In this document: positions 2,818 through 51,200 of the stretch, piece after piece | Position numbering within the stretch: position 1 is the first letter of the stretch | Layout: each line of letters begins with the position of its first letter | Source of the DNA: Octopus vulgaris | Lineage: Eukaryota | Direction of reading: 5' to 3' | Assembly: GCA_951406725.2 (NCBI GenBank) | Contig: OX597821.1 | Location: 116,560,001 to 116,624,000, forward strand | DNA: 64,000 bases | Made by a program: the position numbers and the translations under genes | Notes under the pieces: generated by a model | What the model saw: only the letters and a program-made list of their open reading frames with translations | Databases searched by the model: none | Told to the model about the DNA's origin: nothing

Positions 2818-3199
2818 TGGTTCTGGGCTTAGTCCCACTGTGTGACACCTTGGGCAAGTGTCTTCTGCAATACCCTCAGGCTGGCCAAAGCTTTCTGAGT
2901 GGATTTGGCAGGTGGAAACTGAAGGAAGCTCATCATGTAGATATATATTTATATATCTAGTTAATCTAAACATGAACAAAGAGAAAACACAACAACGTGA
3001 GGACGTGGAACAAGTATAGTGTTATTGGACACTGAGGAAAGGAAAGAAAGAAGGAGGATTTAACGTTTCGAGCGGAGCTCTTTGTCAGAAACATGGAAAA
3101 AAGGAAAAGTCCAAGGAAGGGAAGACAGAGAAAGAAAATCGCCAACGATACACACGCGATCACATATTCAAAATATATATATAGCTATGTGTGTGTGTT

Positions 3200-3261
<62 letters not shown>

Positions 3262-3495
3262 TGAATGTGTGTGTGTCTTTGTGTCTATTTTTCTGCTACC
3301 ACTGCTTGACAACTGGTGTTGGTTTGTTTACACCCACCTCCCATCACACATAGAAGTTCAGAAAAAAGCGACCATCATTATAAGTACTAAGCTGGTAAAA
3401 AATAAGTACTGGAGTCGATTCGTTCAACTAAAAAATTCTTCAAGGCAGTGCCCCAGCATGGCCACAGTCTAATGACTGAAACAATGAAAACTTAA
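2818..3495 (+). mobile_element. SINE family B, interrupted by an HHR-bearing insert
   Basis: ACCTTGGGCAAGTGTCTTCT core and CCAGCATGGCCACAGTCTAATGACTGAAAC tail. Foreign 2955-3172 lies in its internal microsatellite. Confidence 0.8.
3058..3092 (-). ncRNA. Degenerate minimal type-I hammerhead motif
   Basis: Reverse strand: GTTT-CTGACAA-A-GAGC-tcc-GCTC-GAAA-CGTT-AAAT; core has G8A. Confidence 0.55.
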
Positions 3496-3662
3496 AAGCC
3501 ATATTTCACTCCTTAATGGTTACCTCTGAAGAGTGCAGGGTTACATAATCAGACTGTTACCTAACACTCCATTAAACCCCTAGTGCAAAACTGATCAGTA
3601 AGATCAGCTGTGATGGATATATAATACTGTATACTTTGATTAATACACACACACATATATAT

Positions 3663-3803
3663 TAATAATATTTTATAAATTTAAAGCTTATAAGTGATCA
3701 CTGTTAAATGACTAAAGAAAATAGTCTAATATTGGGGTATAGACTATTTTCTTTAGTCAATTAACAGTGATACTTTAAGCTTTAAGCTTCAAAAATATTA
3801 TTA
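3663..3803. repeat. Fold-back inverted repeat with 3' tail between microsatellites
   Basis: 3697-3728 is the reverse complement of 3740-3771 with 1 mismatch; outer arms are looser. Confidence 0.8.
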
Positions 3804-3848
3804 TTTACACAATTGTAAAGCACGACACTGCTTACTAAATCATTGCTG

Positions 3849-3894
<46 letters not shown>

Positions 3895-4279
3895 GTGCGT
3901 ACACACACACACACACACATGTATATAACTGAAAAGATTGGCACCAACAAGAAGGGGTGCAGTTGGACATTTAATTTTTAATCACTACAATTGTTTTCAC
4001 GCAATGCAATCCTCCAAGTGCACAGGTACTTGATTATGTAACTGTTTCCCTGCATTATGAAATCTGAGAGGAGGTGGTGGTGGTGGTGGGATCTTGTCCT
4101 GCAAGTTACTTGAGGAACTCAGAAATGCCAGAGCCACATAAAATGCATCCAGTCAGTACACTCTGTGAAGAGGCTGGCATTAGGAAGGGCACCTGAACAT
4201 TGAATCTTTACCAAAGCCCTCTGGCTCATCAGTTCCTGTTAACCCATCCAACCCATGCCAGCATGGAGAAAGGGACATT

Positions 4280-4570
4280 ATATGATGATAAAGATGATGA
4301 TGATGATGATGATGATGATGATATGATGGTGTTGGCAGTTGTGGTGAGGATGATGATGGTGGTGATGGTGATGATGGTGATGGTGATGATGATGGTGGTG
4401 GTTGTGATGGTGATGGTGATGATGATGATGATGATGACGACGACAATAATGGTAATTATGATGATGATGATGATGATGGTAACAATGATGATGATGCTGA
4501 TGATGATGACAATGATGATGGATGATAATGATGATGATGATAATGATGACCACGACAATGACGATGATGA
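4280..4570. repeat. (GAT)n/(GGT)n tract at the tail of a family C copy (4090-4280)
   Basis: Follows CCAACCCATGCCAGCATGGAGAAAGGGACATTA. Confidence 0.85.
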
Positions 4571-4950
4571 CCTGGAGCTAAAATGACAAAACCAACAATA
4601 ACCATACAGTTTCTGCCAGAGATTTTTTCCAGCAGCTTCCATCAGGTTGATGTTAAACTAAGCAGAGAGTCTCTGACAAAGATGGATTCTTGTGGTTAAT
4701 CCAAAGCTGAAACTTGATCCCTACAACGGCTGAATCTTGCAAATAACGGCAAAAAATATCACAAAGTATATTTTCAAGATCAATAAGCGTTTGTTTGCCT
4801 GTTTTGTTTTGGCTTTTCTTCACTCGAATACATGATGTTTATTATTGAGAAGAGAAATCCACAAGCAATCTTCCTGCTACAGCTGATTAGGTCTTTCAGT
4901 GACACACATCCATTCCACTGTCACCATTATCATGCATGTTACATTGTATA

Positions 4951-4990
<40 letters not shown>

Positions 4991-5052
4991 TCATCATCAT
5001 CATCATCGTTTAGCGTCCGTTTTCCATGCTAGCATGGGTTGAACATATATAT

Positions 5053-5460
5053 GTAGGTGTAGGAATGGCCATGTGGTAAGTAGCTTGCTTGCCAATCACA
5101 TGGTTCTGGGTTCAGTCCCACTGCGTGACACCTTGGGCAAGTGTCTTCTACTATAGCCTCGGGCCGACCAAAGCCTTGTGAGTGGATTTCGTAGACGGAA
5201 ACTGAAAGAAGCCCGTCGTATATATGTATGTGTGTGTGTGTATGTTTGTATGTTTGTGTGTCTGTATTTGTTCCCCCCACCCAACATCGCTTGACAACCG
5301 ATGCTGGTGTGTTTACATCCCCGTAACTTAGCAGTTTGGCAAAAGAGACCGATAGAATAAGTACTAGGCTTACAAAGAATAAGTCCTGGGGTCAATTTGC
5401 TCGACTAAAGGCGGTGCTCCAGCATGGCCGCAGTCAAATGACTGAAACAAATAAAAGAGA
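5053..5460 (+). mobile_element. SINE family B, full length (tRNA-like head, CORE-like segment, internal microsatellite)
   Basis: Head TAGGTGTAGGAATGGCCATGTGGTAAG...GGGTTCAGTCCC; core ACCTTGGGCAAGT; tail GACTGAAACAAATAAAAGA. Confidence 0.88.
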
Positions 5461-5619
5461 GTATGTATATATATATAATAATAATAATGAAATTATTGTA
5501 TACAGTGCTCAGGTGCACCACAACTTGTCAAAAGTGCATATATAGCATATGCAGAAATGTCTGGAAAGTGAACAGTGTATGAGTGCGTATGTGAAAGGTG
5601 CATTCCAGAGGTTTTGAAA

Positions 5620-5872
5620 ATTTTCAGAAGTTTGAGGCATTGAGCCTCATGGAGGTAATGTGACTGGGTTCCTTTCAAATGTTGGGCCTCGCAAAGGCAA
5701 TGACTGTGACCTTTAGCATTATGTTCTGCTTGAGAAGAAGACCCACCAAGCAAAATCACAGTCATGGCAGATACTGGTATCACACAAATGACACCCATGC
5801 CAGTGGAACATAAAAGCACCCGTTACTCTCTTGTAGTGGTTGGCATTAGGAAGGGCATCCAACTGTAGAACA
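5620..5872 (+). mobile_element. RTE ORF-end remnant fused to family C repeat
   Basis: CCTTTCAAATGTTGGGCCTCGCAAAGGCAATGAC matches the RTE end at 17855-17945, then GCATTAGGAAGGGCATCC. Confidence 0.6.
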
Positions 5873-5874
5873 CT

Positions 5875-6088
5875 GGTCTGTTGCAGGTGAGCTGCTAAAT
5901 GCAGGAGGAGAAAGTGAGAGAAAGTGGTGGCAAAAGAGTCAGCAGAGGTTTGCCATTACCTTCTGCTGGAGCTGTGTGGAGCTTAGATGTTTCACTCATA
6001 AACACATACATCACCTGGTCTGAGATTCGAACCTGCAATCCCTCGACTGCAAATCTGCTGCTCTAACCACTAGGCCATGTGCCTCCAT
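5875..6088 (-). mobile_element. tRNA-derived SINE family E
   Basis: Reverse strand A-box TGGCCTAGTGG and B-box GGTTCGAATCT; body homologous to 58858-59160. Confidence 0.75.
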
Positions 6089-6851
6089 GTATTGTAATAT
6101 TACAATCATGAAATTAGCATTAGCTTATCTTACTTTTTCTTGGGGAACCTCTAGGAGCCTTTTGTGTAACCCTAGGGTTCCGGGGACACCAGTTGAGAAA
6201 CACTGCTATAAACCATCTCCTTTATAGCATCATACCTGCTCTTGTCCCTCTATCACACTTTAATCTCCCCACACCTGGCACAAAACCAACACCCCTTTCT
6301 TTAAAATAGTGCCCCCACCACTAAGTCAAGGGGCCGTTTTCCTTTCCTTGTTCTGCTCCTGTCTTGCAAGTTACTTAGTTGCCTCACTAGTGCTGGTGGC
6401 ATGAAACAAAGCACCCAGTACATGCTGTAAAGGGGTTTGTATTAGAAAGGGCATAGAGGTGGAGAACGCATGACAAAGCAGATGCTGTTTGCTGGGTCCT
6501 GTCAAATCAACCCAACCACGGGGCCAGAATGGAAAATGGATGTTTAAACAACAAGGAGAAGGAATTATCACACACACACACACACACATTAGGAAGGGCA
6601 TCCAGCCATAAAAACCCTGCCAAAACTGACACAGTAGCCTGGGGTGGTCTTCTACTGTCCTACCCCTGCATGCATGAAAAACATATGTTAAACAATGATG
6701 ATGATGATGATGATGATGGTGATAAGGATGAGAGACATACATGCACAAACCCACACACACACAGATGCACACATACACATATATAGATGCACACACGCAC
6801 ACATATATAGATGCATGCGTGCGCTCACACACACACACACACATGTATATA

Positions 6852-7264
6852 TCTATAATATAAATTGGACATGGGCGATCGTTATATTCTTTCTTGTCTT
6901 GAGGTTCACAGCCAAACGATTGGGTGGATCTGCGTGAAAAATGGCACTCATGTGGAGACGGGTGCATAGATTGGAATGCAGTTTGTATTTTTTTCCTAGC
7001 ATCCATACTTACCGAGAAAATTAATTAAAACTTTTTCTAATGGAATTCTCCTCTTTCTTCCGCCATTAAAACAACCAGTTGCTTAGAAGCTGTTTTCTGA
7101 CAGAGTGGTGGGTTTAGGAAATTGTCATACAGCTGAAGGCTCCAATCGAAACAGGGGACCCGAAATGTTAAGGTTGACAAACGCTGTAATAGATTATGCC
7201 TAACCGAAAACGATCACAGCCACATCATCCAAACAGACTGGGTGAAACCGGGCTTAGCTGCTAA
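6852..7264 (+). mobile_element. Probable non-autonomous Helitron
   Basis: Starts A|TCTATAATATAAA; ends with hairpin CTGG-GTGAAA-CCGG about 10 nt before CTAA|T (CTRR); A/T insertion site, no target site duplication (TSD). Confidence 0.6.
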
Positions 7265-8509
7265 TATATATATATATATATTTGTACAATTATAAATAAG
7301 GGCAAAAGAAAGATATTTCTATGCCAATATGCTGAGAAATAGATTTTAAATCGCCAATCACCACATACGAAATACATCACTACGAACACACGTTTTGCTG
7401 AAATTGAGGAAAGCACGCTAACAGAATTTTATTAAAAATGCGTTAAATCTATATATGTATGTATGTATATATGTATTGTATCTCTATATATGTATATATG
7501 TATTGTATCTCTATATATGTATGTATTCTATCTCTCTATATGTACGTATTGTATCTCTATATATTTATGTATTCTATATCTCACTCTATATATATCTATG
7601 TATTGTAACTGTGTTCATTTCCTTCCTTTTTAGTAGATTGGAGCCAATGGTATTGAATATTTGTGTGAATTATTTCATGCAGAGTAACTGTTGTAGATTA
7701 GGTGTGAATTTTAACCGAGACAGAACCCACAGAGGACATTGTTGTCGCTCAAGCGTTCGATTATTGAAGCATGTCGACAGCCCGTAGCATTAAGTAGTGC
7801 AAATACATATGAATTAGTAATTTCTTTGCCATGTCACTTTGAATATCCTTTTTTTCCTGTTCTCTTATCTGACCAACTAATCAGGGTGCACACACACACA
7901 CACACACACGCACGCACGCACACACACACATGCGCACACACACATGCATGCATGCACGCACAAACACATACATGCATGCATGGACGCACACACGGTGATG
8001 TTGAGAATGATGTCTGTTTTGGAAGTGGTCATTGACTAACAAGGAAAGTGGTGAACTGTCAACTTGGTGTGTGTGGGGGTGGAGGTGTGGCTGATAGTCG
8101 GGGTGAGGTGGGTGGGGGAGAGATGTCAAGGCAGAATAATGACAATCAATGAAATGGTTTCTATGGCTACAATAAACAACTATAAATTTGATGACTCTTA
8201 CTTACTAACTACTACTACTACTACTACTACTACTGCTGCTGTTGCTGCTGCTGCTGCTGCCATGGGTTGTGGTTGTGGTGGGGACAAAAGTAGTGGTACT
8301 GTTATTGCTGTTGCTGTTGTTGTTGTTAAGCTACAAGCCGGGTAAGGGTGATTAAGGTGATGGTCTAGGGCTTAGGGGCGGGAGACCCCAGACCTTGGAA
8401 AAGAAAAACTTTGGTCGTCTTGTTGACACCCGGGGGGGTAGCCATCGAAGTCACAGGAAATGGAGATCTCCAGGTCCAAATTATTGAATGGCTGCTGTTG
8501 CGGTTGTGG

Positions 8510-8556
<47 letters not shown>

Positions 8557-8981
8557 GGTGGTGGTGGTTGATCCCAACTGGCATTGACAATTCAATTATT
8601 CCATCATACGTTCCTGAATTAAATTGTAAGTTGGCTGAGTATTCCGTAGTCATATGTACTCTTAGCATAATTCTTCAGCCGAACCAACAGAGCACAGTGA
8701 GGGCGACAAGGTTTGAACCTTTCAAATTACAAATACAACCCATCTGACAAGCTTCCATACAGTTTCCCCTCCAGACAATTTCCCTCTTAGCTTTGAGTCA
8801 ACCCAAGGACAAAAAAACTGACATTTGTCCAAGGTACTGTGCAGTGAGATTGAACCCTAGACGTCATGGCTGCAAAGCAAATTTCTAAATCATTTCACCA
8901 TACAATGACTATTATAAATACTACAAAAGAAAAAAAAAACTGTATACATCACTTACAGTTCTCTGTGGTTTGGGACATCAA

Positions 8982-9345
8982 TAGGTGCAGGTGAGGGTCT
9001 GTAGTTAGAAGTTTGCTTTCCAACCACATGGTTCTGGGTTCAGTCCCACTGCATGGCACCCTGGTCAAGTGTCTTCTACTATAGCCTCGAGCTGACCAAA
9101 GCCTTCTGAGTGGATTTGGTAGATTGAAACTGAAAGAAGCCCATTGTAAATGTGTGTGTGTGTGTGATTTTATGTCTGTGTTTGTCCTCACCACCATCCC
9201 CGTAACTTAGCGGTTCAGCAAAGGAGACCAACAGAATTAAGTACCAAGCTTAAAAATAAGAAGCACTGTGATCAGTTCATTTGACTGAAAAATGCTTCAA
9301 GGCAGTGCTCCAGCATGGCCACAGTCTAATGCCTGAAACAAGTGA
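8982..9345 (+). mobile_element. SINE family B
   Basis: Same head, core and tail as 5053-5460. Confidence 0.85.
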
Positions 9346-14590: not shown

Positions 14591-14663
<73 letters not shown>

Positions 14664-14915: not shown

Positions 14916-15569
14916 AATACTACAAAATTAGAGAATGGAGAAACATACTTAAATCAATAAAACATCAACTATCCGATGATACTCAATCCATACTTTAATA
15001 CACCATTACATAGGAGTAAAGGCAATATATAAAATGAAATGAGATATACAGTAATAGTAAAAGTAAAAAGATAAAGAGATATAAGTAAAAAATTACAAAT
15101 ACAATATGCAAATAAATCAAAACTGACAGCTGTTTCGGCAGTGAGGACAGTCATACCTCATTTAACCTATAAGCCATAAAGGCAGGTATAAATGAGGCAT
15201 TAACAAAGATGCCCCACGGCCTCTTCAGAGAATTAAATTAAATTTGTTATAATAGTGAAAAATATTATATAATCATATACATATAAATATAAAAATATAA
15301 AAAAGTAAAATATAAAAACTTATACATCATAATGCTACACTTGTATAATATAATACATATTTGTACAAAAAGGAAGGTAACCAGAACAAAATAAAGCAAA
15401 ATATATAACAGTGTATATATAATATTAATAAGTACCGATATCATACATATTTAGCTAATAGTTTTTATAAAAAAAAGGGCTAACACATATGGAGATGAAA
15501 AATAATAATAATTAAATCCGTGGTACAGTTCATAAAATTCTAAAGCTATAAAAGTTAATAAAAATTACT

Positions 15570-15603
<34 letters not shown>

Positions 15604-16049
15604 GTAATAATAATAAAAATAATAAAAATAGATACAGTTAAGTTATCACCAAGTCCATCCTTCCAAGATCGAAATAACTATGAGTTAAGAAATGCTGACC
15701 ACTAGGTAAAGAAAATTTAGATTAATTCGATTGGCTATTGGTTTGAAATTTAAATCACAAAAGAAAATTTATATATTGCCTTTACTCCTATGTAATGGTG
15801 TATTAAAGTATGGATTGAGTATCATCGGATAGTTGATGTTTTATTGATTTAAGTATGTTTCTCCATTCTCTAATTTTGTAGTATTAATTTACGGTAATAT
15901 TATTACCCTTACCCATTTAATACAATAGATGAACTGATTGCTTGACAATTTCTAACATCTATGTATTAATTTTTGTTGGGTACCTATCTAGCAGTATATT
16001 GGATATATATTATCCCATGGTGGGTTGAATTTTCAACCCCTATCTCATT

Positions 16050-16052
<3 letters not shown>
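14916..16052. mobile_element. Penelope-like non-autonomous element (inverted arms plus tail) in (TA)n
   Basis: 118-bp identical inverted arms 14916-15033 and 15768-15885; unpaired tail 15886-16052; HHR inside. Confidence 0.7.
15121..15234 (-). ncRNA. Type-I hammerhead motif with long stem II
   Basis: Reverse strand CT-CTGAAGA-GGCcGTGGGG...CCTCACtGCC-GAAA-CAGCTG-TC-AG; palindromic stem III; stem I only 2 bp. Confidence 0.6.
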
Positions 16053-16453: not shown

Positions 16454-16506
<53 letters not shown>

Positions 16507-16509
<3 letters not shown>

Positions 16510-17292
16510 AGAAAAAGGCAACAAAAATGGATCAGTATTTCGGTACAATTGTTTTATACGAAGACCAGCTTTATTAAGGCTGCAAATATTGCAGCAAATA
16601 CAAGTGACCCGTACTCATCAGCCAAAAACACATCTGAGTTCCCCAAACATCTAAGGGGGTGAGGCTACACTCATGAAACATCAGGGATAGTTCTATAAAA
16701 ATCAGATTTAGATAATAAACGGACTTCCAAAGTTCTCTAATGTTGCACAGTCATATAACAGGTCTTAAAAAAGTATTTTAAAAAGCCTGTTAGTTTCACA
16801 GAAAATGAAAATGTAAATCCATCCATAATGAAGTAGGTTTGATTTCTGGAGATATGAGGAGAGATTTCATACTCACAGACGATGAATTTATCCATAATTA
16901 GTCCATAATAAAGTGGGTATAGTTTCCTGATGTATGATGATATACTGGTTACACTTTAGAAGTCAGTTTATTATCTAAATCTGATTTTTATAGAACTATC
17001 CCTGATGTTTCATGAGTGTAGCCTCACCCCCTTAGATGTTTGGAGAACTCAGATGTGTTTTTGGCTGATGAGAACGGGTCACTTGTATTTGCTGCAATAT
17101 TTGCAGCCTTAATAAAGCTGGTCTTCGTATGAAACAATTGTACAGAAATACTGATCCATTTTTGTTGCTTTTTTCTTGTTTATAATCACCCCGCATTATC
17201 TTATGGTTAATACCATATAGATTTCTGGTGCATCTAAGTTAAGTACCTCATTCATGTGAGTTCAAGAGAACTCACTTGAATCTTAATTGTTT

Positions 17293-17295
<3 letters not shown>
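16507..17295. mobile_element. Penelope-like non-autonomous element (221-bp inverted arms plus tail) in (TA)n
   Basis: Arms 16507-16727 and 16959-17179 with a few mismatches; tail 17180-17295; HHR in each arm. Confidence 0.75.
17061..17146 (+). ncRNA. Type-I hammerhead motif (mirror copy at 16540-16625, minus strand)
   Basis: Two-arm consensus TTGG-CTGATGA-GTACG...CGTAT-GAAA-CAATTG-TA-CCGA. Confidence 0.7.
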
Positions 17296-17345
<50 letters not shown>

Positions 17346-17499
17346 TATCAAAACACATGTTTCGACCAGTCATTCTGGGTCTCTTTAAGTACATCAATTA
17401 AAAGTCTCACTCAAGATTACTTGACTCAGCTTACATACCACTATATGTCCATCAAGTTCGAGAATATATGTATATAAATATATACATACATATATATAT

Positions 17500-18384: not shown

Positions 18385-18598
18385 AACGGGAAGCTTTATG
18401 AAAATAGACAAAAGACGAAGGCAGGTGGAAAACAAACAAACAATTGTATTAGTATGGTGCTCAGGAAATATAAATAAAACAAGTCTTTAACGTTTCGAGC
18501 CTACGCTCTTCAACAGAAAGATACACAGAGAGAAAAAAAACACAGAAAGAAGGAGAGAAAAAAATGCGTGCAGTAACTAACGAATCAACATGGCGGTC
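18385..18598 (-). mobile_element. ~215-bp HHR-bearing element between (TA)n tracts
   Basis: Reverse strand 18520-18485: CTTT-CTGTTGA-A-GAGC-gtag-GCTC-GAAA-CGTT-AAAG; related to 2955-3172. Confidence 0.6.
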
Positions 18599-34159: not shown

Positions 34160-34465
34160 TATTAAGTGGTATAGATGTGGAGATTTACATTCGTGACTTC
34201 AAGTTTCTATATAAATGATATAATAATCATAATATGTCTTCAGTTGTTGTAAACTCAGTGTATACAATTACAAACATGAAAGAATACTTTGATGGGCACT
34301 GGGCTCACAACAGCTGAAGAAGTGCAATGATAACCATAGTGCTAACACGGAAACTTAGTCCTGTATGAGAGTTTCCCTAAGTGTATCATTCAATAAATAT
34401 AGTCCTCTAATTCCAATGATATCGAAGTCTATCTTTTTTGTCATCTCACACCATTTGTCACTAAA
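34160..34465 (+). mobile_element. ~300-bp HHR-bearing element in the microsatellite of a SINE B
   Basis: 34310-34364: ACAG-CTGAAGA-A-GTG...CAC-G-GAAA-CTTAG-TC-CTGT; AATAAA downstream. Confidence 0.6.
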
Positions 34466-36788: not shown

Positions 36789-36789
36789 A

Positions 36790-37119: not shown

Positions 37120-37162
<43 letters not shown>

Positions 37163-37167
<5 letters not shown>

Positions 37168-37913
37168 TTAAAATTACTAAGTCTCTCTAAAAGAGAACAC
37201 GGCAGCGTTCCCGGAAAAAAATAGTTATCGCCATACTAATATGGCATTCTTATAAAAATAAGAATAAAGCTGACCGCTTATTAGCTCCATGAGGCCATCG
37301 CCTTAAGTTAGCTATTTGATACACAAACTGTATCCATATAACCTTCGAACAAGGGAGGTCAGTCGCTCCACACTACTTGACCGACAGCTACAGACGCGTT
37401 TCGGGGTATTGCCCTTTTCAATGTAGCGTAGCCAGACCAGTAGGTGTCGCTTCTGACAATCTCTGTTCGAAGGTTTTATTTACCTAGTTTCGGTGGAATA
37501 CATCCACTTGTTTTCAATAATAATGCATGCCATATTAGTATGGCGATAACTATTATTTTCCGGGAACGCTGCCGTGTTCTCTTTTAGAGAGACTTAGTAA
37601 TTTTAATATTTCTATTATTGAAAACAAGTGGATGTATTCCACCGAAACTAGGTAAATAAAACCTTCGAACAGAGATTGTCAGAAGCGACACCTACTGGTC
37701 TGGCTACACTACATTGAAAAGGGGCAATACCCCGAAACGCGTCTGTAGCTGTCGGTCAAGTAGTGTGGAGTGACTGACCTCCCTTGTTCGAAGGTTATAT
37801 GGATACAGTTTGTGTATCAAATAGCTAACTTAAGGCGATGGCCTCATGGAGCTAATAAGCGGTCAGCTTTATTCTTATTTTTATAAGAATGCCATATTAG
37901 TATGGCGATAACT
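37163..37913. mobile_element. Retrozyme-like 362-nt monomer as inverted, circularly permuted pair
   Basis: Right copy 37527-37888 followed by a 25-nt repeat of its own start; left arm 37163-37522 is the reverse complement of the same unit opened at 37613. Confidence 0.8.
37709..37748 (+). ncRNA. Minimal type-I hammerhead, U3:A8 variant (mirror copy 37387-37427, minus strand)
   Basis: CTACA-TTGAAAA-GGGG-caata-CCCC-GAAA-CGCG-TC-TGTAG; all three stems pair. Confidence 0.8.
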
Positions 37914-37914
37914 G

Positions 37915-37978
<64 letters not shown>

Positions 37979-37999: not shown

Positions 38000-38439
38000 T
38001 ATACAGTTCTATATTTAAGAGATGAGGAATTATGTATATTATTTACATTATTTACATTTGACGGATATTTGTCCTCATCTTGTTTGTCGTTAACAAAACG
38101 TTTTGGCTGATATACCCTCCAGCCTTCTTCGGGTGTCTTGAGGAAATTTCGAACCTGGGTTCTCATTCCTAAGGTATTTTTCAATGGTGGGGTTTGTAGC
38201 CCGCACTCTTAACCACTACGCCATATGCCCAAGTTCAATTCCAAGCAGTGACCTGAACAATAACAGTAACAATAATAATAATAATAAACATCTAAAAATA
38301 CCTTAGGAATGAGAGCCCAGGTTCAAAATTTCCCCAAAACACCTGATGAAGGCTGGAGGATTTATCAGCCGAAACGTTTTGTTAACAACAAACAAGATGT
38401 GGACAAATACCTGTCAAATGTAAATAGTGTAAATAATAT
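38000..38439. mobile_element. SINE family D (tRNA head plus HHR tail), inverted dimer 1
   Basis: Minus copy 38000-38230 carries the 5' head; plus copy 38231-38439 starts at the B box; HHRs at 38092-38137 (-) and 38338-38383 (+). Confidence 0.85.
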
Positions 38440-38624: not shown

Positions 38625-38826
38625 TATACAGTTCTATATTTAAGAGATGAGGAATTATGTATATTATTTACATTATTTATATTCAACGGATATTTGTCCT
38701 CATCTTGTTTGTTGTTAACAAAACGTTTGGCTGATATACCCTCCAGCCTTCATCAGGTGTCTTGGGGAAATTTTGAACCTAGATTCTCATTTCTAAGGGA
38801 TTTTTCAATATTGTTGTTGTTGTTTG

Positions 38827-38888
<62 letters not shown>

Positions 38889-39054
38889 GTTATTATTATT
38901 GTTATTATTTTTGTTATTGTTATTGTTCAAGTCACTGCTTGGAATTGAACTCGGGCATATGGCGTAGTGGTTAAGAATGGAGGCTACTAACCCCAAGATT
39001 CCGAGTTTGATTTCAAGAAGTGACCTGTACAATAACAATAATAATAATAATAAC

Positions 39055-39104
<50 letters not shown>

Positions 39105-39133
39105 TGATGATGATGATGATGATGATAATAATG

Positions 39134-39215
<82 letters not shown>

Positions 39216-39238
39216 TAATAATAATAATAATAATAATG

Positions 39239-39302
<64 letters not shown>

Positions 39303-39478
39303 CATTGAAAAATACCTTAGGAACGAGAACCCAGGTTTGAAATTTTCCCAACACACCTGATGAAGGCTGGAGAGTATATCAGCCGAAATGTTGTGTTAAC
39401 AACAAACAAGATGAGGGCAAATATCTGCCAAATGTAAATAATGTAAATAATTCCTCATCTCTTAAATATAAAACTGTA
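38625..39478. mobile_element. SINE family D inverted dimer 2
   Basis: Minus copy 38625-38952 truncated at the B box; full plus copy 38953-39478 with about 270 bp of (AAT)n; HHRs at 38716-38761 (-) and 39352-39397 (+). Confidence 0.85.
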
Positions 39479-40865: not shown

Positions 40866-40996
40866 ACACACACGCACATCACATATACACACATCACATA
40901 CACACGCACATCACATATACACACATCACATACACACGCACATCACATATACACACATCACATACACACGCACATCACATATACACACATCACATC
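40866..40996. repeat. 32-bp minisatellite, about 4 copies
   Basis: ACACACGCACATCACATATACACACATCACAT repeated. Confidence 0.9.
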
Positions 40997-41518: not shown

Positions 41519-41665
41519 TTATTCAATAAAATCTCCATTGGTTTCAACCACGGCCTCCAGACGACTTCGGAATCTCCTGCAACTCTTCTGGACAGTCTCC
41601 TTGTTTAAGTTGGCGAATGCTGCCATAATCCTTGCCTTCAATTCATCTTTGGTGTTACTGAAACA
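41519..41665 (-). pseudogene. Tc1/mariner-superfamily transposase C-terminal fragment
   Basis: NTKDELKARIMAAFANLNKETVQKSCRRFRSRLEAVVETNGDFIE*. Confidence 0.7.
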
Positions 41666-41688
41666 AGTAAAAGAGGGAAATAATACAT

Positions 41689-41723
<35 letters not shown>

Positions 41724-42112
41724 CATATCATACATACATACATACACATACATACACACATACATACATACAGACATACAGACAGACAGACACATATACA
41801 TACATATACATACATACACATACATACGTACATACACATACATACATACATATGTACGTACATACATGCATACGTACGTACATACATAGATGAAATGGGA
41901 CTGAACCCAAAACCATGTGTTTGCAAAGCGAGCTCCTTAACCACACAGCCAAGCCTACACACACACACATGCATATGTATGAAGACTTATTTACTTTGTC
42001 CCCAGTTTCAGCCAGTTGCCTGTCGGGTCTTCACAGGATCACTAACTGCTGTCAAAGGTTAACAAAGTTCGCTTTACCTCATTACATATGTGAGAACCAA
42101 CCATACATATAG

Positions 42113-42143
<31 letters not shown>

Positions 42144-42630
42144 TGTCGTCGTCGTCATGATCATCGTCGTTGTCGTCATCTTTTAATGTCCGCTTTCCAT
42201 TCTGGCATGGGTTGGACAGTTTGACTGAGGTCTGGAGAGCCAGCGGCTGCACCAGGCTCCAATCTGATCTGGCAAGGTTTCTACAACTGGATGCCCTTCC
42301 TAACATCAACCACTCCAAGAATGTAATGGGTGCATTTTATGTGCCACTGGCACAGGGGCCAGTCAAGCCAAACCAATCCAGCATGGAACATCATCATCAT
42401 CATCATCATCGTTTAACATCTGCTTTCCATGCTGGCATGGGTTGGATGGTTTGACTGAGGACTGGCAATCCAGGAGGCTGCACCAGGTTCCAGTTGGCAT
42501 GGTTTCTGCAGTAGGAAGCCCTTCCTAATGCCAACCTCTCCATGAGTGTAGTGGGTGCTTTTTACATTCCACCAGAACATGTGCCAGTCAGGCGGCACTG
42601 GCATCGGCCACACACAAATGTTTTTTACAT
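42113..42630 (-). mobile_element. Two family C copies
   Basis: (CAT)n followed by TTTCCAT(G/T)CTGGCATGGGTTGGA...GCCCTTCCTAA. Confidence 0.8.
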
Positions 42631-42903
42631 GCTACTTGCCTGGATGTTAAATGATAAAAGAGAAAAATTATGTATATTTGTCCAACCCATGCAAGCATGG
42701 AAAATGAATGTTAAATGATGATAATGATGAGCATGTGTGTGTGATGCTATATATGAAATCATGTTTCTCCAATATGTTTGAAAGAAAACCGTCCTTTCTA
42801 TAGATGTAAATATATATACATACATGCACACACACATACATATATACTTACACACACACACATATATGTATGCATATATACATATATATACATGTGTGTG
42901 TGT

Positions 42904-42977
<74 letters not shown>

Positions 42978-43308
42978 GTATATGTAGTCATATGTACATT
43001 CATACATATATACATACAAACATGCACACAAAGACACAAAGCTTTGCAAACCCACCAAACAACAGAAAAACAGGAAATCACAGAACAATAGTTTCTTTCT
43101 TCTACCTACAGGATCTCACAAGCTACCTATGAATACCCTAATGCCCCCCACCACCTCGACACCACCAACACACATCCCTCCCCCCCACTAAGCCAAGACG
43201 CATGCCATAACTTTCATGGTTTAAATGCAACAAACCAACCTAACAAGTTGGAATGTTGTTGAAACATTCGTATTTGCATACACAAACGCACAGACAAAAT
43301 ATAAGTAT

Positions 43309-43340
<32 letters not shown>

Positions 43341-43469
43341 GTATGTATTCTTATCATTAATAATCGGCGGAAGTTCAGAGTGACTCAAAAGCCAAGAGTT
43401 TGGTGTATGTGTGTGTGTATATATATATATATATTACGGAGATGTTCTTGCATAGCAAGTGATCTGATC

Positions 43470-43542
43470 TGAGACCACGACCTGTTCACTGCCAAAATTC
43501 CATACTGCACGGAATTTTGTCAGTGAACAGGTCGTGGTCTCA
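43470..43542. repeat. 32-bp stem, 9-nt loop hairpin within a ~215-bp insert between (TA)n tracts
   Basis: TGAGACCACGACCTGTTCACTGcCAAAATTCC and GGAATTTTGtCAGTGAACAGGTCGTGGTCTCA. Confidence 0.85.
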
Positions 43543-43649
43543 AAGCGACAAAAATATTTTGACAAATTAAATTGAAATGTAGAAGAGAATCTAATGGATT
43601 TTGTGTGTTTCTTAAATGGCTTATAAACATCTTCCATGCTGCAATTGTT

Positions 43650-43680
<31 letters not shown>

Positions 43681-44098
43681 ATATTACACCACCAGTCAGC
43701 TTCACATGGGTTTGCATCCACAGCTTCCGTGCTTCCTATGGCACCCTCCTACTCAACTGGGTCTTGCACAGCACAAAATGTTGGTTTTACAGCACCTCAT
43801 AGATCCTCTCCACCAGAGACAAACCAGGACCAAGTTATCCTGTACCAATATGGCTTTCAGGCTCAGAAATGTGGGAGCACCATGATCTCATGTGCAATCA
43901 AAGGATCCCCAAAATGTTCAATGCTTTCTCCTGCTCATCTAGTTTCATATTAAAATGACCTCCTCTTAGAGAAATGCTTTAGCAAAAGCCTAGGTGTGCC
44001 TCATTGCCAGTGGTTTTCCAGCATGCCAGACACCAACCTGGGATTTCTGAGGGCGCATACTGTTGCTAGATAGTTGTTCATTGACCCTACACTAGGGA

Positions 44099-44150
<52 letters not shown>

Positions 44151-44185
44151 CAAATAAGTAACAAACTAGGATGTCGAGGTACTAG

Positions 44186-44272
44186 TGCATTATGGCCATT
44201 TCAAGCGATTCCATTTAATCAAACAATGTAAGCATTACATCAATTTGAAATACACTGCCATCTTCAGATGCA
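44186..44272 (-). ncRNA. Type-I hammerhead motif in a ~305-bp TA-flanked insert (44148-44453)
   Basis: Reverse strand TGCAT-CTGAAGA-tGGC...GCTt-GAAA-TGGCCA-TA-ATGCA. Confidence 0.65.
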
Positions 44273-45169
44273 TAATATAGGTTTTCAACATACAGGATAC
44301 TCCATAATTTTTAGCAAATATTTCATCAAAACTAGAGAATGCAAGAATTACATGCTGTTAATATTGTAGCAAAATGAATTTAGAGAGAAAATACCCCAAC
44401 TATACTTTGGAGTGGAAGAAGAGAATAACAATGGGGGTTTATGAGATGGTAAGATATATATGTGTGTGTTGGCATTACAAAGGGCACCCAGCCATAGAAA
44501 CTATGCCAAAGCAGATGGAACTTAGCCTGATCTTCTCACTTACCAGCTTCTGCCAAACTGTCCAACTCATGGCTGCATTAAATGATGATGGGATGATAAT
44601 GATATTGTTTGTTTGTTTAACGTCCATGCTGGCATGGGTTGGACGGTTTGACTGAGGAATGGCAAGCCAGTAGGCTGCACCAGGCTCCAATCTGATATCT
44701 GATCCGATAAGGTTTCTACAGCTGGATGCCCTTCCTAATGCCAGCCACTCTGAGGGTGTAGTGGATGCTTTTTACATGCCTCCAGCATGGGAGCCAATTG
44801 GGGGTACTGGCTTCGACCACATTTGGATCGTGTTTTTTATGTGTCACCAGCAGGGGAGCCAGTCAGGGGGCACTGCCATCAACCACATTTGGATAGTGCT
44901 TTTTACATGTCAAGGATAAAGGATAAAGACACCCCCTTCGGTCATGAATGACCATAGGATTGCACCGGATCATCCTCACAGCCGAAATTGCAAGGATGAT
45001 CCGGTTCTTGACTGTAGATAAAAGGCTTCGAATGACCCGTCTGTGTTTTTTTGTATTGTCTATCTGGATGTTTTGTTGTCCCTTTTTGTATCACCTAGTC
45101 ATCCAGGTGTTTTGCGTTCTTGTCCCATTTTGTATTTTATTTTATTATATATATATAGCAGTGTACATA

Positions 45170-45420
45170 CAGCGTGTGGCTTAGTGGTTAGGGTGTCAGC
45201 ATCATAATTGTAAGATTGTGGTTTCGATTCCTGGACCGGGCGACGCATTGTGTTCTTGAGCAAAACACTTCATTTCACATTGCTCCAGTCCACTCAGCTG
45301 GCAAAAATAAGTAACGCTGCGATGGACTGGCATCCTGTCCAGCTAGGGAACTCATACTCTATAGAAACCAGGAAACTGGGCCCATGAGCCTGGCTAGGCT
45401 TTAAAAAAAGGGCACATTTA
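45170..45420 (+). mobile_element. tRNA-derived SINE family F
   Basis: A-box TGGCTTAGTGG, B-box GTTTCGATTCC, TTGAGCAAAACACTT core; relatives at about 25500-25645 (-) and 49870-50045 (-). Confidence 0.75.
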
Positions 45421-45421
45421 C

Positions 45422-45452
<31 letters not shown>

Positions 45453-46779
45453 ATCAGTAATGATAAAGAGTCCACAAGTAAATCAAATGCCGGCTGAACT
45501 TTCATTATTTTTCCCTCGATGCCTACGTGAATTGTTTTTGAGTATACATTATCTGGGAGATTCTTCTTATGGTAGAAGAAATGGCTAAGTTCTTTGGCTG
45601 CTATTTCTAAAAGTTCTGTATGTGGCGAAGCAAATTTTTTTGCTGAACCCTAATTATAATTATACTCATAATTCTATAAAGTAACATTTAATATATATAT
45701 ATGTGTGTGTGTGTGTACATACATACATACACCCACACACCCACATATATAAATAAATATAAACAAACTAACATTTGTTTTTTGTTTTTTTGAAAGCGTC
45801 GAAATGTGTATTTTACAATAGAATCTGATGATAATTTTGTTCGAACACAGAAACGCTGTTGGAACACCAAAAATATTGAGTAAATTGCCCATACAAAGCA
45901 GCAACAGCAGAATGAGACATGAAAAGCATTTGGCAGTTATTTCTAGCATGTTGATCAGCCACACAAAGGATCTCAGTTGGTTTGTATGACAAATAGGCGC
46001 CAGATATTATGTAAACATCTGAGTAGATGTTGGCCTAAATTCTCTGAGTCTTAGAGAAAACTTTAGAATCTAAAGCAATCAATAATTCTCCTCTTCTTCC
46101 TCTATTTTTTTTATGTGTTTTTTTCATTCATTTATTTATTTATATATTTATTTATTTTGACTTATATCTTTAACATAGAAGTTTCAGTTTTTACCTGCAA
46201 CATACCTTGCAGAAATGCAACAGGTGTGCATTGAATGAGAGAGAGAGAGAGTGGGTGGTGGGGTGAAGGTAGGAGGTCTCTTTTACCTGAAATGATCTCA
46301 TTTCAGAAATATCCAGCTAACAAAAGCATAAGATCAATTTTAATTTGTTTATATTCATCAAAAAATATCAAGAATTGGTGACTAAGTCACACTGGTATGT
46401 TTTTTTTCTTTTTTTTTTTTGTGGTTGTTGTTTTAAACAATGGTGGTGAGAATTGAATATGATAACATGACTCTTCACAGCTAATTTCACACCCTTCCTT
46501 ACTTTTCCATGCACACACACACAAACACACACACACAAACACACACACACAAACACACACACACATTCACTCATGCATACATGGATTCACGCATAGATAA
46601 ACATACCAGCAAAGCAAAGAAACATATGTTAAACCTTAGATGAGGTTGCATGTACATATACACATATATGTACTCTTCATACAAACTTGTTGTCATGGCA
46701 CACAGGTTGTTGGTCTGGTCTGGTCTAGTGGTGGTGATGGTGGTGACTTGTTGAGGACAGAAGTTGGCTATGCTTTTAA

Positions 46780-47012
46780 GAAGGCGGCAAGCTGGCAGAA
46801 TCGTTAGCACGCCGAGCGAAATGCCTAGCGGTATTTCGTCTGCCGTTACATTGTGAGTTCAAATTCCACAGAGGTCGACTTTACCTTTCATCCTTTCGGG
46901 GTCGATAAATGAAGTACCAGTTACGCACTGGAATCGATGTAATCGACTTAATCCCTTTGTCTGTCCTTGTTTGTCCACTCTATGTTTGGCCCCTTTTGGG
47001 CAGTAAAGAAAT
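46780..47012 (+). mobile_element. SINE family A, near consensus
   Basis: Complete head, core and tail. Confidence 0.9.
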
Positions 47013-47251
47013 AGTAGGTGACTTGTTGAATTGAATGATATTGTGTTCCTTGGGCTGTGTGAAGAAGTAACTGAACAACACCCAGAAATATTTAACAGAA
47101 GATGTTATCATCACACTTAAAGGCAAATTGTGTGGGCCTTTTACAGATTACAACAGCAATAATTAGATCCTGGGTGAGAGATGCTGCTTAGAGTTTATGG
47201 CAAAGCTATTGGTATGGCAACCTGCAGCTTGCCCAACATAACTAGAAACAC

Positions 47252-47363
47252 AGGCATATGGCATAGTGGTTAAGAGCACAAGCTACTAACTCCAAGATTC
47301 CAAGTTCAGTTTCAGGCAGTAACCTGAATAATAATAATAATAACAATAATAATAATAATGATC

Positions 47364-47407
<44 letters not shown>

Positions 47408-48333
47408 TAATTCTGGTTTATTGGCCACAAGGGCTAACAAAAATCAAAGAAACATGTAAGGACAAATACAGGACGAAAAGTACAAAGGGTTTTGTCCGAT
47501 AGAAAGGTCCGTGTAAACATTCAGAATAACAACGAAAATATATATAACAAGTAAAACTCCCAATAGAGGGAGGCGCTTCGAAAGGTTACTCATGGAAAAA
47601 CCCATAAAAACCACGGGAGCCTGGTCGAAAAGGGGTAGAGAGCCCCTTTCTCCTTTTATACTTACTTTTTTTTTTCACAGGTGTAACCTCAGAATTGGTC
47701 CGTTCATACTGGCCATTTTCCCGATATTCACCCACCTTTCAATAAATTTGCTACGAGACAACACTTCCCTCTCTACTCTCACCTTCCTTTTCAAGTGGAA
47801 CTTGAAAAAGTTGATGAGGCCTTGGCCAAAGAGGAAGGTGTCTGATTTTAGCCCTTTCAAACGAGTCCACCATACTACTTCTTTCACTACAGCCACTAGA
47901 CAAAGGAAAATTGCCTTGCCCTCCCGGTTAAAGGTCGGCGAGGCAATCTTCACTATGGATTCAACTGATAGTCGGATCCATCCTATACGAGACAGTTGCT
48001 GTTTGACATAAACCCACAGGTCAGCAATACTCGAGCACTGGACAAGTGCATGCAGAATGGTTTTGCCGTCCTGAGCGCACCTCGGGCAGGTCCTGCTGAC
48101 AGCACTTCCATGCCGGTAGAGTTTATCTTAAACAGGCAGCGCTCCTCAGTACGAAAAATACCTTAGGAATGAGAACCTAGGTTTGAAATTTCCCCAAGAC
48201 ACCTGATGAAGGCTGGAGGGTATATCAGTTGAAACATTATGTTAACAACAAACAAGATGAGGACAAATATCCATCAAATGTAAATAATGTAAATAATGTA
48301 CATAATTCCTCATCTCTTAAATATAGAACTGTA
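47252..48333 (+). mobile_element. SINE family D monomer interrupted by a Tx1-like LINE
   Basis: Head GGCATATGGCATAGTGGTTAAG, then (AAT)n; tail resumes at 48152 with HHR 48198-48243. Confidence 0.85.
47410..48150 (-). mobile_element. Tx1-like (L1 clade) LINE 3' fragment
   Basis: ORF 47675-47953 is homologous to 60561-61373 (FNREGKAIF...WWTRLKGL...INFFKFHLKRKVRVER); upstream CPRC...H...C zinc knuckle. Confidence 0.85.
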
Positions 48334-48689
48334 TTATAACTGGAAACAGTTGTGCTATATCTGTGGCAATGGAGGTTCCTGTCATCTATCTGCACTATCT
48401 GTCTTAGCTGCCTTCCTGGGTTGTCTGGTTGGTAAAAATGTGTGCCAAATGGTATTTATAGGGGACCAGAATTCAAGTTCTAGAATGTCCAAGAATACCT
48501 ATCCATACCATTGCTTCTTCATGCCGATTGGTCAGTTAGTAGACCAATTGCGTAAAACTATGCTGGTTTGCTCATGATGTCTAACTGTATATCCAGGGAT
48601 TTGGTTTCAAAGCCTGGCTACATTTTATTTAAATTTATAAACACACATAACGTATTAGGAAGTGTTACTGTAGAGGAGATGTATTATGA

Positions 48690-49632
48690 TTTTATACCTG
48701 GGAGAAGTATTGTTGGTGGTCTCTTCTTAATAAGGTAACCGCTGGAGAAGTATTAGCTAAAAGTAAACCATTGTACCTGTCTTTCTTTGCCCATGAGAAA
48801 GCCTTTGACAGGGTTACTTTCTCTATGATCTAGGGGTCTCTGAAGATGCTATGAGTCAATGAAAGGCTTCTGCATCTGGTGGTGAGGTGCCTGTTTGGGA
48901 GTTCTGGGGTTGTGGAGAGTGTGGTGTTATCCCTTAGCTACCGTTAATTACCATTACTCCCAGGTCTTTTCTGACCCAGAATGGTAGTACCTATCTGGAT
49001 CCTGTTTATGGGTTGAATAGATTTTTGAAAAAGGTACATTGAGCTCCTTCATAGAGGTGAAGCAATCAATCTAAGAGAAGAAAAACTCTAAAACTGATAC
49101 CTTCTTCCAGTATTTCTTAAGCCAGCACAGAAGTGTATGGCTGATGAAACTAACATGGAGTATGCCCAGTAATGTAAAATCATACTATGGAGATAATTAT
49201 CTCATATTGGTGCACAGACTGTGACAGGAGGAGATAGCAGGAAATGATAAAGATGGTGAAAACTTTGTTCCTGGCTTTTTTTGCCCTGGAGAAATCCTTT
49301 GACAGGGTCACTTCTTTTGTGATCTTGTGGTCCCTGAGGAAGCTAGAGGTAGATAAATGGCTTGTGAGAGACATGCAAGACTCGTATAGAGGTTCTGTCA
49401 GTGAGGTGAGGATTAGCAACGAATATCACAATGAATTTAATGTAGAGGTGTCGGTCCCCAAAGCTTGGCTCGTAATTGCCTTGAACTCATCCAATCTCCT
49501 CCAGTTCAGAACATTGAAATTAAAACCAGTCATCCATAGAAACTCCTCTCTGCTGGTGATCTTGCTTTTATAATTGAATATGTAGTAGAACTAGAGAAGA
49601 AATTCCAAGCGTGGAAGCAAAACCTTGAACCA
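48690..49632 (+). pseudogene. Two decayed RTE reverse-transcriptase fragments
   Basis: FFALEKSFDRV...LWSLRKLEVDKWLVR...YRGSVSEVR (49244-49573); similar GAGAAAGCCTTTGACAGGGT near 48795. Confidence 0.7.
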
Positions 49633-49709
49633 AAGGGCCTTAAAATTAACCTAAGCTTTTGCTAAAATTTTTTATGATGGCTGTCCATCACAATGTACAG
49701 TATTGAGCA

Positions 49710-49855
49710 CTGACTCAAGTTCTAGGACTCAAAGGGTCAGTTCTAGACTGATTCAAGTTCTAAGACTCAAAGGGTCAGTTCTAGACTGACTCGAGTTCTA
49801 GGACTGAAAGGTCAGTTCTAGACTGACTCAAGTTCTAGGACTCAAAGCATCAGTT
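49710..49855. repeat. 38-bp minisatellite, about 4 copies
   Basis: CTGACTCAAGTTCTAGGACTCAAAGGGTCAGTTCTAGA repeated. Confidence 0.9.
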
Positions 49856-50796
49856 ACTTAATTTCTATGGTGTGTAATTGACTGAGATCACAAGATTCTC
49901 CCTGAACAGGACACCAGTGTATTACAGGGTTATCTATTTGCAGCTGAGTGGACTGAAGTGATGTGAAATGAAATGCCTTCCCCAAGAACTGAAATCATAA
50001 TCTTGAAATCATGAGTGCAACACCTTACCACTGAGGCATGTACCTTCAAGCACAACATATACCTCCTACAAAAAAAATACAAAAACAACACATATTTTTC
50101 TGAGGATTACTTGAACTAATAATTTGAATTTTTAAGTAAAGCATTTTTGTGAATGTGTCACGATTGGGATGTTGTAAATTCATGTTTTAAATTTTCTGTT
50201 TATAAAAATATGATTTCTCTTGAATGACAGAGTGATGAAATATAGAAATATTCTATGAAGAACTGAGGAAACATCACAGCAGGGGTCGAGAATGAAGTCG
50301 CCGTTCGAAATGATAAGATTGTTTGTTGCCAGTGCTACAAGAATTGGTGCTTCTCTTCTATTAATTCATGTTTGGAAAACTTGGATTTCTAAACGACATC
50401 TTCAATTGAATGGTGTGATTTAAATTCATTCTTTTTCATTTTGAGAAACATCGTAAATAAAATTCCAAACTTAATCTTTGAATACAATACAAATTCAAAA
50501 GTAATCACAGCCATCACGGAATTCTGGTTTTCTGAACAATTTGGTTTCAAATTTTGGCACAAGGCCAGCAATTTGGTGGGGAGGGGTAAGTCAATTACAT
50601 CAACCCCAGTACTCAACTGGTACTTATTTTATTGATCTCGGAAAGATGAAAGGCAAATCCCACATTGACAGAATTTGAAATCAGAACGTAAAGACAGGTG
50701 AAATACCTATTTCTTTACTACCCACAGAGGAGACAAACAAGGACAGACAAACAGATTAAGGCGATTATATCGACCCCAGTGCATAACTGGTACTTA

Positions 50797-51200
50797 CATA
50801 CATATGCACTCAGACACTTCAATTTTTAAAAAAACACCTAAAGAAGTGCAAGACCCAGGATTTTAAGCCATCCATCTGGGCCACTCACTACAATAGGGGC
50901 AATCTCAGAATCATGGAGGCTTTCCTTATCAACAAATTGAGACCAACCATGAACAACAGGAAAGAACTACATGAAGTAGACTAGTTAATAGAGCAACACC
51001 AGTCCATGCATGTCACCTTCCTCCTTCACCACCACCCCCACATTTGGTTAACAACTTTTCCATTCTTTGCTTTTAACAAATATCCTGAAGAAGGGGTTAT
51101 AACCCCAAAATATAGAAATGCAAAGTAAAACTGAAACTTTGTTTTCTCTTGTTTTCTTTTTCTTTTCCTTTTGTTCCTGCCTTTCACAACAAATCCCTTC
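50797..51200 (+). mobile_element. Penelope-like element 3' remnant: GIY-YIG C-terminus plus degenerate HHR
   Basis: 50835-50984 HLKKCKTQDFKPSIWATHYNRGNLRIMEAFLINKLRPTMNNRKELHEVD*; 51081-51118 TATC-CTGAAGA-A-GGGGTT-at-AACCCC-(A)AAA-TATA. Confidence 0.65.

Follow-up and report, generated by a model that had tools for sequence, protein, structure and literature searches.

Hammerhead ribozymes are known from Penelope-like elements (PLEs), and here we examine a 64-kb stretch of Octopus vulgaris DNA (contig OX597821.1, positions 116,560,001 to 116,624,000; hereafter the window) in which 16 hammerhead-shaped motifs had been listed. The hammerheads in the pseudo-long terminal repeats (pLTRs) of metazoan PLEs have a palindromic stem III, a U3:A8 core and an unpaired base before stem II; they are highly diverse within single genomes and occur as pairs on opposite strands with 100-700 bp between them (Cervera & de la Pena 2014, PMC4209133). 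The palindromic stem III permits dimer folding (PMC4209133; review PMC6765202), with low activity in vitro. Hydra-1_Obim, a PLE of Octopus bimaculoides, has a hammerhead and a preference for (TA)n (Craig et al. 2021, PMC8557442 Files S1/S2). Endonuclease-bearing (EN+) PLEs leave an inverted truncated copy, carry a 30-40-bp tail at one end and are biased towards (TA)n (PMC8557442). Frangieh et al. (PMC11167929) ascribe the one-sided tail to two internal start sites of the reverse transcriptase (RT) and report that cleavage of an anole PLE in vitro is protein-assisted and unnecessary for insertion. Among smaller elements, non-LTR retrozymes have been proposed to be non-autonomous PLE derivatives (PMC7229834; bioRxiv 10.64898/2026.07.22.740005), and a reliance on tandem copies and cleavage has been described for Sm-alpha and Sj-alpha of Schistosoma (PMC6765202). 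PLEs make up 6.83% of the O. vulgaris genome, in 190 families (PMC13282606); the supplement to that paper does not mention hammerheads or ribozymes.

A sequence-only reading of the window had proposed about nine hammerhead-bearing element types, and took them for non-autonomous PLE derivatives suited to dimeric cleavage and favouring (TA)n. Its observation is genuine, yet overstated as to the intactness of the motifs and their (TA)n setting. All structural evidence presented below was drawn from the window, which also holds 160 tandem-repeat rows, fragments of long interspersed nuclear elements (LINEs) as well as many heads of tRNA-type short interspersed nuclear elements (SINEs). A sequencing-run search listed 24 runs, all of them as contigs and none from RNA. 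The window contains decayed hammerhead motifs of eight or nine kinds, and we consider it probable that these are the 3' ends of EN+ PLEs and of at least two likely non-autonomous parasites of PLEs, unit H and family D, presumably all moved by PLE machinery (coordinates in Table 1).

Comparison with described PLE hammerheads

The motifs of the window resemble the minimal type I PLE hammerheads of PMC4209133 in their core, the unpaired base before stem II, the 4-5-bp stem I, the palindrome and the U3:A8 pair. They share with that set the diversity within one genome, the opposite-strand pairs and the predominance of single truncated copies, and differ from it in the branched stem II regions of 58-85 nt at B, C and I and in the tRNA-like head of family D. 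Per base, they seem to be denser than the 2,000-9,000 motifs per genome of that paper would imply, but this density comes from one selected window.

The resemblance extends to the Hydra-clade PLEs, which likewise have a hammerhead near the 3' end, a (TA)n preference and, at the C-terminus, a GIY-YIG endonuclease (here present as a remnant). Hydra-clade PLEs have a near-palindromic stem III of 3-4 bp. As in EN+ PLEs (PMC8557442), the window has truncated copies in inverted orientation and tails at one end only. Unlike these elements, however, no motif in the window has the sequence of the Hydra-1_Obim motif, and the Hydra loops II listed in the PMC8557442 supplement are at most 10 nt long, as against the 58-85-nt regions of B, C and I. 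An assignment of the long-loop motifs to Naiads found no support: 12 short motifs of the window had no match in the PMC8557442 supplement, whose long runs are interrupted.

Enrichment and intactness of the hammerhead motifs

All 16 listed motifs were found in the window, the positions given by the sequence-only reading falling within stem I or close to where cleavage would occur. The strict descriptor for a type I hammerhead combined the core with a stem I and a stem II of at least 3 bp each, a spacer of up to 120 nt and a palindromic stem III; its controls were 775 dinucleotide shuffles in 300-nt blocks and the reversed window, and the descriptors were composed after the sites had been seen. 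With a perfect core, four sites at three loci matched (34314, 37421, 37714 and 44267), while the shuffles had a mean of 0.15 and a maximum of 2, and none of the 775 reached the observed number. With one core mismatch allowed and a stem I of at least 4 bp, eight sites matched (shuffle mean 1.29, maximum 5; 0/775). The reversed window gave no match in the first case and one in the second. When one mismatch was allowed and the palindrome was not required, there was no enrichment (34 against 27; 112/775 shuffles).

In a second test, a perfect core followed by GAAA and a palindrome of at least 6 nt, stems ignored, was found 13 times against 3.56 (0/1000 shuffles), whereas GAAA with a palindrome but without the core was found 40 times against 32.9 (125/1000 shuffles); the palindrome is therefore enriched only in company of the core. 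For stem I, 39 of 45 positions in nine families (17353 dropped) pair with their own partner, compared with 19.7 after permutation (0 of 100,000 permutations), a difference that is biased upward because the sites were partly picked for their stem I.

Many of the motifs are damaged. The core CUGANGA...GAAA...UH (or U3:A8) is perfect in 9 of 16, has one change in four (Table 1), and has two changes or a lost base in two (two changes in D1, one base lost at G12 in D3); the remaining motif, 17353, has three or more. A stem III palindrome, full or odd-centred, is present in 14 of 16 and gone in D4 and D5, so that a self-complementary stem III nearly everywhere, as the sequence-only reading had it, is borne out. 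Stem I is partner-specific across the families but broken in B, 17065, 17353 and four of the five D copies. Only 4 of the 16 motifs, the sites of the strict scan, combine core, palindrome and both stems. The listed positions hold hammerhead-shaped motifs, seven of which have core defects. Flanks are mostly unrelated, again as had been noted: among 36 pairs compared, no pair other than 3088 and 18516, which are related, shows similarity in the 3' flank. Because of this kinship, the proposed nine types become eight plus the doubtful 17353.

Three types have long stem II regions with inner hairpins, as well as 8-nt palindromes. In locus B the region is 85 nt long and branched and the palindrome is ACAGCTGT; hammerhead 15228 has a perfect core and a stem I of just 2 bp. 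In locus C the region is 59 nt long and the palindrome ACAATTGT, and in type I they are 58 nt and ATGGCCAT, hammerhead 44267 having a perfect core and a stem I of 5 bp. Rfam recovered none of the motifs at the gathering score, and none at E<=5 on 37100-51400. As read from the sequence, stem I of type G (34300-34372) resumes beyond an internal loop with another helix of 4 bp, an arrangement known from canonical type I hammerheads, and this distal helix is also present in G' (34243), which is homologous to G (34314) and arranged back-to-back with it. At 27376-27320(-), GAAA precedes ACTTAAGT, a palindrome of 8 nt; a near-core lies 40 nt upstream, and stem I is poor.

Insertion geometry, target preference and an endonuclease remnant

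An inverted truncated copy lies beside the element at B, C, H, D1/D2 and D3/D4, and in more diverged form at G/G'. One end is, at B, C and H, flush with (TA)n and the other is extended by 165, 112 and 57 nt, respectively; the extension of B is borne by the inverted 3' copy at 15768-16050, and that of C is at one side. A one-sided tail, of 36 nt, is present at D1/D2 and not seen at D3/D4. At 36786-37119, an AT-rich inverted repeat bounded by (TA)n has a 64-nt one-sided extension and no hammerhead; it probably represents an inverted pair of PLE copies whose truncation lies 3' of the ribozyme.

Outside family D, 7 of 9 families have a tract of (TA)4+ on the 3' side of the cleavage site at a distance of no more than 250 nt, against a background of 19% (p=2.5e-4), as do 6 of 8 (p=1e-3) when 17353 is left out. 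Such a tract is found at one of the four D copies tested and is absent at 51085. A preference for (TA)n is supported for the non-D families, and D lies mostly elsewhere.

What is left of a GIY-YIG endonuclease reading frame, its C-terminal part, ends 100 nt before type J hammerhead 51085, which makes 51085 the probable 3' end of a truncated coding PLE. The 61-aa remnant is 54% identical to the C-terminus of P0008, a GIY-YIG protein (E 5.4e-4), and P0008 is itself above the Pfam GIY-YIG cut-off. In the Atlas, the nearest named cluster to the remnant has GIY-YIG in 15% of its members (score 0.90). The remnant had no direct Pfam match, and a word-index homology search with it was empty. Elsewhere in the window, tblastn with P0007/P0008 gave no further match, and no PLE RT was found; GIY-YIG-like peptides noticed by eye upstream of 34314 and 44267, which are weak, were not recovered by tblastn. 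Just 3' of J, a descriptor match at 51328(-), with GTGAAGA as core, a 6-bp stem I and AATT as stem III, lies in very AT-rich sequence and may be a chance match or an inverted partner.

The remnant, the inverted copies and the one-sided tails support the PLE origin that the sequence-only reading had assigned. Our hand-drawn extents of the non-D elements cover 7.2% of the window (family D, 2.6%). This share of about 7% is close to the published 6.83%, so nine types in 64 kb are what that share predicts. As to non-autonomy, there is positive evidence of a complete, non-coding unit for H and D only; 51085 probably ends a coding PLE, and the singleton types are not distinguishable from 5'-truncated copies.

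A compact unit of 360 nt at locus H

Locus H looks like a miniature PLE insertion, and no other locus makes as good a case for a non-autonomous unit. Its minus strand carries the whole 360-nt unit with a 57-nt tail, and its plus strand an 89-nt 3' fragment fused head-to-tail to a tail-less copy. Both copies start at the identical base, and the plus-strand tail abuts that start directly, which fixes the length of the unit at about 360 nt. The longest open reading frame (ORF) has 21 aa. The unit folds strongly (z of -6.2 compared with shuffles), into a long stem I that bears the hammerhead at its tip. Neither hammerhead is damaged, each having the U3:A8 core and ACGCGT, and the predicted fold of two copies is a double hammerhead in which stems III and I are intermolecular and stem II is intramolecular. 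The H sequence pattern had no match in metagenome, viral and GTDB collections.

The unit is like the animal non-LTR retrozymes in its size, its strong folding, its lack of an ORF, its type I hammerhead and its head-to-tail junction. It is unlike them in having no same-strand tandem of hammerhead units (retrozymes have at least two consecutive ones, H 1.1 units with one hammerhead on the plus strand), in its minimal U3:A8 motif and in showing the PLE insertion geometry directly. Its spread was likely that of a 360-nt unit, with head-to-tail arrangements as the source of the transcript.

Family D joins a tRNA-like head to a hammerhead tail

In family D, all five hammerhead parts are joined via (AAT)n to a tRNA-like head sequence, and no free head, that is, without the hammerhead tail, was found in the window. 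The tRNA-like head had escaped the sequence-only reading, as had the position of the family mostly outside (TA)n. D4 is full length (head 38953-39030, (AAT)n, hammerhead 39357); its partner D3 is truncated at the B box. D1 has an internally deleted head and a 36-nt tail, and D2, which starts at the B box, is shorter at its 3' end by precisely the final 36 nt that D1, D3, D4 and D5 carry. D5 is interrupted at (AAT)n by a LINE fragment at 47408-48152(-), which is therefore younger than D5. Both head and tail of D5 are enclosed together by a target-site duplication of 13 bp, and D1/D2 has one of 12 bp; 4 and 7 of 20,000 random flank pairs, respectively, reach these lengths. Four of the five copies lie within 1.5 kb; D5 is 8 kb off, with flanks unrelated to those of the others. 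The tails are 86-91% alike with no close pair, and the 3' end is a hammerhead-bearing segment terminating in AGAACTGTA, neither A-rich nor tandem-repeated. The first pair of stem I is mismatched in four of the five copies. The A box is exact at +8 in three of three heads, and ARAGORN calls the D4 region at a lowered threshold only and does not call the majority head. Patterns of D and of its head had no match in metagenome, viral and GTDB collections.

Like Sm-alpha and Sj-alpha of Schistosoma (PMC6765202), D is short and non-coding, a retroposon in which a Pol III-type (RNA polymerase III) promoter, putative in D, precedes the hammerhead; unlike them, it has a minimal hammerhead of PLE type, a 3' tail and inverted insertion pairs, and no tandem arrays here. 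Its A box at +8, candidate B box near +52, target-site duplications and dispersed copies 86-91% alike are features of tRNA-derived SINEs (PMC5786205), from which it differs in a 3' part that is PLE-like and not LINE-like (no LINE library was compared). That paper on SINEs mentions neither Penelope nor hammerheads.

On this sequence evidence, D is likely a tRNA-headed SINE moved by PLE machinery, in which the hammerhead need not cleave. Targeted full-text literature searches, with Repbase, Dfam and subscription journals outside their scope, turned up no description of a SINE that has a tRNA head and is mobilised by a PLE.

Coordinates of the features and other elements of the window

Table 1. 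Hammerhead-bearing elements and associated features (positions are those of the window).
Feature	Position	Strand	Description
Type A element	2940..3175	-	minimal hammerhead 3088 (G8>A), stem III ACGT; related to 18516
Locus B	14916..16050	both	minus-strand body with hammerhead 15228 and inverted 3' copy 15768-16050; (TA)n at both sides
Locus C	16502..17295	both	two inverted copies, 96.6% alike across 232 bp, with hammerheads 16621(-) (G12>A) and 17065(+); (TA)n at both sides
Doubtful site 17353	17344..17470	-	GAAA, ACATGT and 4-bp stem II beside (TA)n; at least three core changes and G at position 17; stem I poor
Type F element	18386..18598	-	minimal hammerhead 18516 (A6>U), ACGT; (TA)n tract on each side
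G'	34166..34275	-	core at 34243, ACTTGAAGT, proximal stem I decayed; absent from the sequence-only reading
Type G element	34285..34465	+	hammerhead 34314: perfect core, ACTTAGT, stem I 4 bp
Locus H	37160..37916	both	non-coding unit of ~360 nt, (TA)n at both sides; hammerheads 37421(-) and 37714(+)
D1(-)/D2(+) inverted pair	38002..38437	both	12-bp target-site duplication
D3(-)/D4(+) inverted pair	38627..39478	both	junction as in D1/D2
Type I element	44149..44450 (5' limit approximate)	-	hammerhead 44267, (TA)n 43 nt downstream
D5	47252..48333	+	tRNA-like head, (AAT)n, hammerhead part 48153-48333; 13-bp target-site duplication
GIY-YIG endonuclease reading frame, C-terminal remnant	50799..50984	+	61-aa frame
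Type J hammerhead 51085	51075..51120	+	G12>A, stem III ATAT; 100 nt past the endonuclease stop

Several other repeats were seen in the window. A LINE RT remnant (Pfam RVT_1) at 34500-36122(-) starts right after the (TA)n that bounds G. The LINE 3' fragments at 47408-48152(-) and 60555-61373(+) are related and both bear zf-RVT, and a LINE fragment of the window matches an Octopus bimaculoides UniRef entry (97% over 14% of the entry length). At 14521-14720, short inverted arms (~30 bp, 93% over the whole) surround a (TA)n tract and may be MITE-like (miniature inverted-repeat transposable element) or a PLE remnant. A 223-bp SINE-like unit is present in 2.4 head-to-tail copies at 26256-26787, and a 164-bp purine-rich tandem repeat in 2.8 copies, with 94% match, at 28463-28926.

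Alternative explanations

Chance resemblance in DNA rich in AT and in repeats may account for single sites such as 17353 and 51328, since several sites need core mismatches and the loose descriptor is not enriched. For the set this explanation is refuted: the strict descriptors beat all 775 and all 1000 shuffles, and the repeated families, the inverted geometry and the endonuclease remnant do not depend on the motifs. It is appreciably more probable, though still unlikely, that all types, H included, are ordinary 5'-truncated coding PLEs and that no true non-autonomous family exists except D. Hammerhead 51085, with its endonuclease remnant, fits this explanation, the singletons are short and unbounded on the 5' side, and PLE hammerheads are mostly single truncated copies (PMC4209133). 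It does not account for an H unit of about 360 nt without an ORF, defined by a common start base and by a tail joined to that start, or for the 850-nt non-coding body of locus B, whose longest ATG frame has 61 aa.

For family D there are two competing explanations. SINE-LINE partnerships are textbook knowledge, and D could be a LINE-dependent tRNA SINE with a captured PLE fragment, its hammerhead a passenger and PLE proteins not the movers. We regard this as doubtful, at perhaps a one-in-four level of belief, as two of the three D loci are inverted pairs with the 3' part in both arms, D2 lacks the 36-nt tail of its partner and the 3' end is of neither the A-rich nor the tandem-repeated kind; the length of the target-site duplications, the avoidance of (TA)n, the mismatched first pair of stem I and the abundance of tRNA SINEs in the window are in its favor. 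The joint of head and tail could also be a local scar, left where a SINE landed by PLE debris and the patch was duplicated nearby, with no mobile family involved. Such a scar would explain why four copies lie so close together, why D1 and D3 have a common flank and why both pairs have a common junction. It is improbable given D5, with its distance, its unrelated flanks and its own target-site duplication around head and tail, and given that five of five tails are linked to a head, with no free head and no close pair among the tails.

Our preferred reading, PLE ends together with the PLE-moved parasites H and D, also has observations that weigh against it. The extensions of 57-165 nt at B, C and H exceed the published 30-40 bp, and a coding remnant was found at one of nine types only. 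D3/D4 has no target-site duplication and has the tail at both ends; because its left flank and junction are common with those of D1/D2, it could have arisen by local duplication, in which case only two D insertions would be independent. Target-site duplications of 12-13 bp are equally typical of LINE insertion. The B box near +52 has one mismatch in D2 and D3 (2/4) and more in D4 and D5, and the D heads had no Rfam tRNA match and no ARAGORN call at default settings. In D1-D3 the first stem I pair is C-U and a T4 run is found there, from which weaker ribozyme function and Pol III read-through are expected.

A possible mechanism

From published PLE biology, a PLE protein (RT plus GIY-YIG) would bind the RNA around the hammerhead, nick AT-rich or (TA)n DNA and start target-primed reverse transcription from two nearby internal sites. 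Such internal starts would give short, 3'-biased copies, an inverted second copy and a tail at one end only. In active ancestors, the palindromic stem III is predicted to have paired two motifs as a double hammerhead; by analogy with the anole PLE (PMC11167929), cleavage is probably protein-assisted and dispensable for insertion. The suitability for dimeric cleavage that the sequence-only reading had claimed can thus be kept for the ancestors, whose palindrome is of the dimer kind. Among the present copies, most motifs are damaged and the paired copies lie on opposite strands, so that one transcript would form long double strands and not a double hammerhead. Most copies would accordingly be relics, and most are predicted to be catalytically dead. 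D likely uses the A and B boxes as an internal Pol III promoter, through which a single copy could be transcribed without a tandem partner. If D does depend on PLEs, the tRNA promoter would free it from the tandem arrangement that PLEs need for transcription.

Known and new aspects of the window

Diverse hammerheads with palindromic stem III in PLE debris at (TA)n are already published, octopus included, and the survey itself adds little. What looks new, on the basis of one window, is family D, along with unit H and the types that have a long stem II. A wider proposal, to which we give somewhat less than even credence, is that D is a true SINE of PLEs, in which a Pol III promoter of tRNA origin has been joined to the hammerhead/tail module of a PLE, copied by the PLE RT/GIY-YIG protein and freed from the need for tandem copies. 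D would then be an abundant, misclassified octopus SINE; beside it, H-like units and the types with branched stem II regions of 58-85 nt would account for some 10^5 motifs genome-wide that standard descriptors miss.

If true, D as a SINE served by PLEs would be the main point of interest of the window. H ties units of retrozyme size directly to the PLE insertion geometry, and the motifs with a long loop II suggest that present hammerhead counts for invertebrate genomes are too low. Together, D and H, if confirmed as such, would define the minimal RNA that is recognised by the PLE protein.

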